Source: a virus (taxonomy: Duplodnaviria; Heunggongvirae; Uroviricota; Caudoviricetes). Taken from it: a DNA stretch of 55,284 nucleotides. Under the pieces are notes generated by a model, which was given only the letters and a program-made list of their open reading frames with translations, made no database searches and was not told the origin of the DNA. The translations under genes and the position numbers were made by a program. The stretch is from positions 1-55,284 of IMG/VR virus record IMGVR_UViG_2648501186_000003; one strand, 5' to 3'. Below are positions 31,421 through 32,610 of this stretch, one piece after another (position 1 is the first letter of the stretch; each line of letters begins with the position of its first letter).

Positions 31421-32610
31421 GCGAGATGAGTTATCTGGAAAAATTGCTGGATGGGGTTGAGGTTGAGTGGTTGCCATTGGGGGAAGTCTCAGCCTTAAGA
31501 AGAGGCAGAGTTATGTCAAAGGGATATTTAACTGAAAATTTTGGCCCATATCCTGTCTATAGCTCTCAAACTGCAAATAATGGGAAAATAGGTTCTATCA
31601 ATACCTTCGATTTTGATGGCGAATATATAAGCTGGACAACAGATGGCGCAAATGCAGGCACTGTGTTCTATCGAACAGGTAAATTTTCAATAACTAATGT
31701 TTGCGGCCTGATTACATTAAAAAGTAAATACCCATTAATCTACAAATTTCTGTTTTACTGGCTAACAATAGAAGCCAAAAAACATGTTTACTCAGGAATG
31801 GGAAACCCCAAGTTAATGAGTCATCAGGTTGAAAATATACCTGTACCAATCCCCTGCCCGGATAATCCGGAAAAATCCCTTGCCATCCAGTCTGAAATCG
31901 TTCGGGTTCTGGATAAATTTACTGCACTTACCGCTGAGCTTACCGCTGAGCTTACCGCTGAGCTTAACATGCGTAAAAAACAATACAACTACTATCGCGA
32001 CCAGTTGTTGAGTTTTAAAGAGGATGAGGTTGAGTGGAAGACTTTAGGAGAAGTGGCTCAATACTCGAAAACAAGAATTAGTTTCGAACTACTTGATGAA
32101 AGGAATTATGTTGGCGTAGATAATCTGCTGCAAAACAGAGCAGGAAAATCATTATCTAATCATGTACCGACATCAGGTAAATTAACGGAGTTTATACCTA
32201 ACGATATATTGATTGGGAATATCCGCCCATATTTGAAAAAAATTTGGCAAGCAGATTGTATCGGTGGAACAAATGGCGATGTATTGGTTATTCGTTGCAT
32301 AGATAGCTCAATAAATACCAGATATCTATATCAGATTTTGGCAGATGACAAATTCTTTGAATACAACATGCAGCATGCTAAAGGAGCAAAAATGCCGCGT
32401 GGCAGTAAAGAGGATATAATGAAATACCCAATCCCTGTACCGCCACTCACCTGGCAAGCTCGCATTGTCGAAATACTCGATAAATTCGACACCCTGACCA
32501 ACTCCATCACTGAAGGTCTTCCGCGTGAAATCGAGTTACGCCAAAAACAATACGAGTACTATCGTGATTTACTGTTCAGTTTCCTAAAAACTGAAACTGT
32601 CAGTAATTAA
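31417..32610 (+). CDS. hsdS: Type I restriction-modification specificity subunit (Type IC) with TAEL x3 central repeat
   Basis: 397 aa; central [13 protein letters not shown]; start overlaps the hsdM stop. Confidence 0.9.
31927..31962 (+). repeat. Three perfect tandem copies of a 12-bp unit (cttaccgctgag) inside hsdS
   Basis: Seen directly; encodes the TAEL repeats. Confidence 0.95.

Follow-up and report, generated by a model that had tools for sequence, protein, structure and literature searches.

The hsdS gene of a Type IC restriction and modification system on a P1-like phage-plasmid contained a perfect, in-frame array of three 12-bp units encoding TAEL, and the same allele was found with two, three and four units on different plasmids. 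The array very probably determines how long the central helix is in a functional Type IC HsdS; three units would give an 8-nt interval between the methylated adenines, 1 bp more than in a two-unit sibling with the same half-sites, and whole units would change by slippage or unequal exchange, faster than by point mutation. The mechanism is textbook, known biology in a new allele and no new mechanism. What is new here is that one allele occurs naturally with two, three and four units on phage-plasmids in circulation, that pairs differing in unit number recur, and that long arrays tend to lie in inactivated loci. Positions below are those of the window, the whole stretch of DNA that was analysed (55,284 bases).

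The TAEL array and the hsdMSR genes

Read directly, positions 31927-31962 (plus strand) consisted of CTTACCGCTGAG three times with zero mismatches. Tandem Repeats Finder reported 31927-31966 with a period of 12, 3.3 copies, 100% matches and a score of 80, a partial fourth copy extending the array to 31966. A score of 50 or more was reached by just two tandem repeats in the 55,284 bases, and of these the hsdS array scored higher. By arithmetic, 24 consecutive matches at a lag of 12 have a chance expectation of about 2e-10 (55,000 x 4^-24). The array was in frame with an ORF at 31417-32610 (plus strand, 397 aa) and was translated as LTAE three times followed by L; in the register of the initial annotation, TAEL occupied residues 172-175, 176-179 and 180-183 of HsdS. 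That annotation had described three tandem 12-bp repeats encoding TAEL x3 in hsdS, and this description held: the repeats were perfect and in frame, and Pfam found two Methylase_S stretches in the ORF at 31417-32610 (E=9.4e-42), showing that the hsdS label was correct. Two primers published for EcoR124II, ctgcacttaccgctgagctt and accgctgagcttaacatgcg (PMC10644984), matched the window exactly, indicating that the unit and its flanks are the same in DNA as those of EcoR124.

Other 12-bp repeats were also present. In hsdM, positions 31312-31335 held a perfect 12-bp x2 repeat (TGCTGAGCTGAA) encoding AELN AELK near the HsdM C-terminus. It was considered as a second switch and rejected, as two copies were found in all 28 loci (28/28) and the repeat was identical in EcoR124 HsdM. 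A further 12-bp tandem repeat, at 2289-2317 (TGAATAGATTAA, 2.4 copies, 94% matches), was located at the 5' end of a minus-strand ORF of 454 aa (967-2331).

The genes were arranged in the order hsdM-hsdS-hsdR on the plus strand, and all three were intact. The methyltransferase subunit gene hsdM (29858-31420, 520 aa; Pfam N6_Mtase and HsdM_N) overlapped hsdS at an ATGA (31417-31420, read directly) formed by the hsdM stop and the hsdS start, implying translational coupling. The restriction/translocase subunit gene hsdR (32732-35848, 1038 aa; Pfam HSDR_N, SWI2_SNF2, T1R_D3-like and EcoR124_C) was set apart by a 121-bp gap (32611-32731). This gap may be the site of a separate hsdR promoter; a weak promoter-like match at 32638-32667 agreed with 9/12 consensus positions, and promoter-like sites in the scan were no more numerous than in shuffled sequence. 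On the 3' side of hsdR, a candidate terminator at 36042-36066 (plus strand) matched the consensus only, with a 10-pair stem (6 GC pairs) and a T-run.

HsdM matched the EcoR124 HsdM chain 7bst_D over its full length (residues 1-520, 1153 bits), with 8 substitutions in 520 positions as counted from the alignment, and HsdR matched EcoR124I HsdR (2w00_A) over residues 1-1038 with 2267 bits. This near-identity to solved EcoR124 subunits showed that hsdMSR is a genuine Type IC system. It belongs to the EcoR124 family and has an S subunit with new target-recognition domains (TRDs). Such families are delimited by sequence, by complementation and by cross-reaction of antibodies. From the near-identity of M and R, complementation by EcoR124 subunits is predicted to be likely.

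HsdS aligned with EcoR124 HsdS (7bst_A) at E=2.7e-76, and its layout, as seen in the alignment, Pfam and a structural model, was that of Type IC: an N-terminal conserved region (about 31417-31488), TRD1 (about 31489-31836), a central conserved region with the central helix (aa 141-213, 31837-32055), TRD2 (about 32056-32442) and a C-terminal conserved region with the C-terminal helix (about 32443-32607), all on the plus strand. The N-terminal, central and C-terminal regions were nearly identical to those of 7bst_A. The central region differed by two substitutions and by the sole gap, 4 aa long and equal to one TAEL unit. Chain 7bst_A is labelled EcoR124II in the PDB, yet it has two TAEL units and is thus the EcoR124I form. 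The placement of hsdS in the EcoR124 family by the initial annotation was therefore borne out by the central-region homology. An alignment of the TRDs with EcoR124, which the same annotation had proposed, gave a divided result: the likeness stood in the conserved regions and failed in both TRDs, which were hardly alignable and unrelated in sequence. When compared with the TRDs of solved structures, the HsdS TRDs showed no useful similarity (best E about 1e-5, to a Thermoanaerobacter HsdS), and the methylome literature offered no sequence link to their half-sites.

The AlphaFold2 model of HsdS had a mean pLDDT of 83, and its best fold match in the PDB was 7bst_A (EcoR124I HsdS). The TAEL array lay within a continuous predicted helix of 47 residues (151-197), most of which fell in the central conserved region, opposite a C-terminal helix of 43 residues (344-386); model confidence fell to about 74-75 over the array.

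Unit number within one allele and across the family

The hsd region of the window was 100% identical to that of a plasmid from pig E. coli ETEC4073 (Belgium), which has three units, and hsdS was also 100% identical in the three-unit plasmid of ETEC4072. In pP136-6 (France) and the ETEC1730 plasmid (Belgium), both likewise from pig E. coli, hsdS was 1182 bp long and was exactly the hsdS of the window minus one unit. Over 13 kb, at least 149 substitution positions separated the window from these two-unit plasmids. A position-by-position comparison nevertheless delimited a substitution-free 3-kb block at 30620-33654 in which the 12-bp indel was the sole difference. This block spanned the 3' end of hsdM, the entire hsdS and the 5' end of hsdR, and the flanks on either side differed by 2-5% between the window and pP136-6 or the ETEC1730 plasmid. 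The hsdS cassette appears, from these sequences, to move between backbones via recombination in the conserved hsdM and hsdR.

A fourth unit was found in the ETEC1701 plasmid (NZ_CP122941.1), which carried the allele of the window with four perfect units and one further substitution. Its hsdS was split in TRD2 by an IS3-family element flanked by a 5-bp duplication, CTAAC, corresponding to window positions 32198-32202. The same plasmid combined the hsdM protein of the two-unit plasmids with the hsdR protein of the three-unit plasmid.

The two-, three- and four-unit states of this allele are fixed differences between plasmids. Comparison of these plasmids showed that, as far as such fixed differences can tell, gain and loss of whole 12-bp units in the array outpace point mutation. 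The initial annotation had held that the allele could switch, and the occurrence of one identical allele with two, three and four units agreed with this, as did other pairs of alleles. Outside the array, the members of each of the following pairs were identical or 99.5% identical: L006 and P0085 (three and two units), L010 and L021 (three and two units), and P0018 and P0023 (two and one units). The two-unit protein of the window's allele (P0001) occurred on 17 contigs and the exact three-unit protein was absent from a collection of 15 billion proteins, indicating that the form in the window is the rarer one. That form may have arisen by a slip that is recent and perhaps transient.

Slippage in place would leave the same sequence as a short patch converted from another three-unit allele. 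The source of the difference might be a different Type IC hsdS that already had another unit number, acting through homologous recombination or a short conversion patch; the array would then be a passenger of TRD shuffling and not itself unstable. The indel stood without substitutions for 1.3 kb upstream and 1.7 kb downstream, which means that such a patch must have been very short or its donor identical. Exchange of this kind does occur around the array: crossovers fall in the central conserved region, with L006 joining the TRD1 of the window to the TRD2 of E2348/69 and many chromosomal alleles sharing only the TRD2 of the window; the locus is a mosaic, an identical 3-kb block within flanks that differ by 2-5%; and many E. 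coli have more than one Type IC copy, with the central region in up to 6 places per genome. However, one allele existed in three states (two, three and four units), perfect arrays of 5, 6 and 8 units were found that no common donor has, and the EcoR124 literature credits unequal crossing-over within the repeat (PMC3874165). On balance, conversion from elsewhere was judged unlikely as the source of the unit difference.

Assembly or sequencing artefacts were an extremely improbable source. Error-prone long-read assemblies can miscount tandem repeats, but the arrays of 24-48 bp were far below read length, and all differences were exact multiples of 12 with a perfect unit sequence. Each state was also seen in independent records, namely two units in French and Belgian plasmids and on 17 contigs, and three units in two plasmids and the window.

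Among 5426 complete E. coli genomes, the Type IC central region was matched in 1360 records. At an identity of at least 95%, which corresponds to a match without a gap, 186 E. coli records matched the three-unit query and 316 the two-unit query. Among 60 records sampled at even spacing, the two-unit length was found in 28/56 scorable rows (about 50%) and the three-unit length in 23/56 (about 41%); one row had 5 units, one had 1 unit, three had other 6-bp indels and four were unscorable. Exact-pattern scans of IMG/VR returned 20 contigs with exactly two units and 9 with exactly three; none with one unit and none with four or more were found in these scans. The 186 gapless E. coli records, the 23/56 sampled rows and the 9 IMG/VR contigs indicated that three units are compatible with function. 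Three-unit proteins had seemed to be missing among the 120 best protein-cluster representatives; this was rejected as an effect of ranking and of clustering at 90%, as three-unit arrays were common in DNA searches.

Arrays of 4-8 units were rare and lay mostly in loci damaged by insertion sequences. Besides the ETEC1701 plasmid (L004), with four units and an hsdS split by IS3, they were found in the chromosome of STB20-1 (L008, NZ_CP050173.1; 5 units, hsdM truncated by IS2), in the chromosome of strain 33-6 (L005, NZ_CP050031.1) and its sister strain 58-3 (8 units, IS3 in hsdM and IS1 in the 5' end of hsdS), and in a metagenome contig in which an IS5-like element cuts hsdS (L040, OATH01001096.1; 6 units). 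Two further metagenome contigs, L039 and L042, had 5 and 5+1 units. A strict rule confining arrays of at least four units to broken loci fitted L004, L005, L008 and L040 and was contradicted by the metagenome contig L041 (OASQ01000144.1), in which a four-unit hsdS ORF was intact. At the short end, a P1-like plasmid (L009) had one unit in an apparently intact locus. The trend, with five loci judged, points to selection that keeps the array at 2-3 units as long as the system works, and to expansion of the array after the system has died.

A three-unit array of another kind was seen in Shigella flexneri CP182557.1 (L044, 4000-4052), which read CTTACCGCTGAG CTTACAGCTGAG CTTACAGCTGAG with two synonymous ACC-to-ACA changes. 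The A-run just 3' of this array was apparently one base shorter. Probably this hsdS has decayed and its interrupted array has become stable.

The pile-up of long arrays in IS-damaged loci also bears on whether the three-unit form of the present allele means anything at all. It might be a slip, neutral or slightly harmful, in a system on which selection does not act, the repeat number having no functional effect; the form is rare (the window and two sibling plasmids, and missing from the large protein collection), and the P1-like host plasmids are shortened and show IS91 rearrangements. This was considered very unlikely. The genes hsdM, hsdS and hsdR are intact, with M and R nearly identical to active EcoR124 enzymes, and three units, besides being common in E. 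coli, are the state of functional EcoR124II, EcoDXXI and EcoprrI.

A stronger reading, possible but rather doubtful, is that the TAEL array is a contingency site in regular use, kept at 2-3 units by selection on the working enzyme and running away to 4-8 units once the enzyme is inactivated. P1-like phage-plasmids would then flip between two specificities, perhaps with a third, since the four-unit hsdS ORF of L041 was intact and a one-unit allele lay in an apparently intact locus. If this were true, copy number would tell live Type IC systems from dead ones, and the family would be a natural series for how the coiled coil tolerates extra turns in one helix only.

The P1-like phage-plasmid setting

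As a P1-like (Punavirus) phage-plasmid, the window has c1, a cre-like integrase gene, pacA/pacB, lpa, pdcA/pdcB, phd/doc, repA/parAB and three tRNAs. In the window and in the isolated Punavirus phage vB_EcoM-673R5, hsdMSR lay between phd and pap/pmgS (about 29757-36700 in the window). Homology to P1, P7, RCS47 and SJ46 ended about 76 bp beyond phd, and these carry humD there. The TRDs were different in the Type IC systems that vB_EcoM-673R5 and several other P1-like plasmids had at this phd-adjacent place. The stretch from phd to pap/pmgS has the look of a hotspot for defence genes in P1-like elements; a search of the literature on Type I systems in P1-like phage-plasmids returned nothing relevant.

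The window was 99.99% identical to the ETEC4073 plasmid over 1-40682 and 99.93% identical to the ETEC4072 plasmid over 1-42625. It departed from both further on, indicating that it is a third, closely related replicon. At window position 40682, an IS91 copy of the ETEC4073 plasmid was absent. Both sibling plasmids ceased to match after 42625, and the last 12.7 kb of the window, with tRNA-Met(cat) (49394-49469), tRNA-Thr (50911-50984) and tRNA-Asn (50987-51062), were missing from those shortened plasmids. On the minus strand at 15293-16597 lay an intact 434-aa ORF whose counterpart carries a SIR2-family annotation; the ETEC4072 plasmid has an intact copy and the ETEC4073 plasmid a frameshifted one. 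This ORF is a possible second defence gene of the element.

Spacer length and comparison with known systems

The EcoR124I/II switch was a laboratory discovery. In EcoR124I/II, EcoDXXI, EcoprrI and the hybrids, each 4-residue unit places the two TRDs about 1 bp further apart along the DNA, and other repeat numbers were reportedly tried by Gubler and Bickle in 1991. The 12-bp unit occurs twice in EcoR124I (GAA N6 RTCG) and three times in EcoR124II (GAA N7 RTCG), and also three times in EcoDXXI and EcoprrI; hybrids of EcoR124I and EcoDXXI with an altered unit number shifted the spacer as predicted, and unequal crossing-over at the repeat was named as the source of the change in units (PMC3874165). 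The rule given in the initial annotation, N6 for two units and N7 for three, is thus documented for EcoR124I/II and for these hybrids. Removal of one unit from EcoR124II (an engineered change from three to two) caused a different set of T5-like phages to be restricted (PMC10644984). A review poses the question of how a coiled coil takes an extra turn in just one helix (PMC3874165).

It is the interval between the two methylated adenines that repeat number sets, 7 nt with two units and 8 nt with three. This interval is 7 in EcoR124I and 8 in EcoDXXI, EcoprrI and NgoAV (PMC3874165, Table 1). The site of NgoAV, GCA N8 TGC, has a spacer of N8 at an interval of 8, showing that spacer count depends on the half-sites too. 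For the allele of the window, three units predict a methyl-adenine interval of 8 nt, and a spacer of N7 would be expected only if its half-sites resemble those of EcoR124.

Taking the array as the length-setting module of the HsdS central helix, we expect this allele to methylate and restrict a bipartite site with a spacer 1 bp longer than that of its two-unit sibling, the half-sites being the same. Units would be gained or lost through replication slippage or through unequal exchange between identical units, and with each such change the phage-plasmid would acquire, in a single step, a new specificity for restriction and modification. Strains with two and three units should differ in methylation motif and, as a result, should restrict each other's DNA and phages; such mutual restriction would affect plasmid and phage exchange among ETEC lineages. 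A switch of the EcoR124I/II type was visible as fixed differences among circulating phage-plasmids of pig E. coli and in several other alleles, and the two-, three- and four-unit forms of one allele are a natural test set for methylome work.

The closest known system is the prototype Type IC pair EcoR124I/EcoR124II of plasmid R124, which shares with the window the gene order, HsdM and HsdR, the conserved regions of HsdS and the unit CTTACCGCTGAG. The two- and three-unit sibling alleles of the window mirror the EcoR124I/II pair. The TRDs, however, are unrelated, so that the half-sites recognised in the window are not GAA and RTCG. The window system also lies beside phd/doc on a P1-like phage-plasmid, whereas EcoR124 lies on a conjugative plasmid, and its allele, in contrast to EcoR124, has a natural four-unit form too, in the gene split by IS3. 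EcoDXXI and EcoprrI, with three units, an interval of 8 and a spacer of N7 (PMC3874165, Table 1), are in the state predicted for the allele of the window. A point of difference is that the window had no anticodon-nuclease gene prrC in the gap of 121 bp that separates hsdS from hsdR. NgoAV of Neisseria gonorrhoeae is likewise Type IC with a methyl-adenine interval of 8, but there a fragmented hsdS yields a half-size subunit acting as a homodimer on the palindromic GCA N8 TGC (PMC3874165), unlike the full-length HsdS of the window. Phase-variable Type I systems (PMC7383803), such as the pneumococcal SpnIII/SpnIV, likewise change specificity through repeats or recombination without new sequence. 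Those systems are turned on and off by frameshifting tracts or have their TRDs shuffled by a recombinase, whereas in the window an in-frame 12-bp unit would alter the spacing of the TRDs only.
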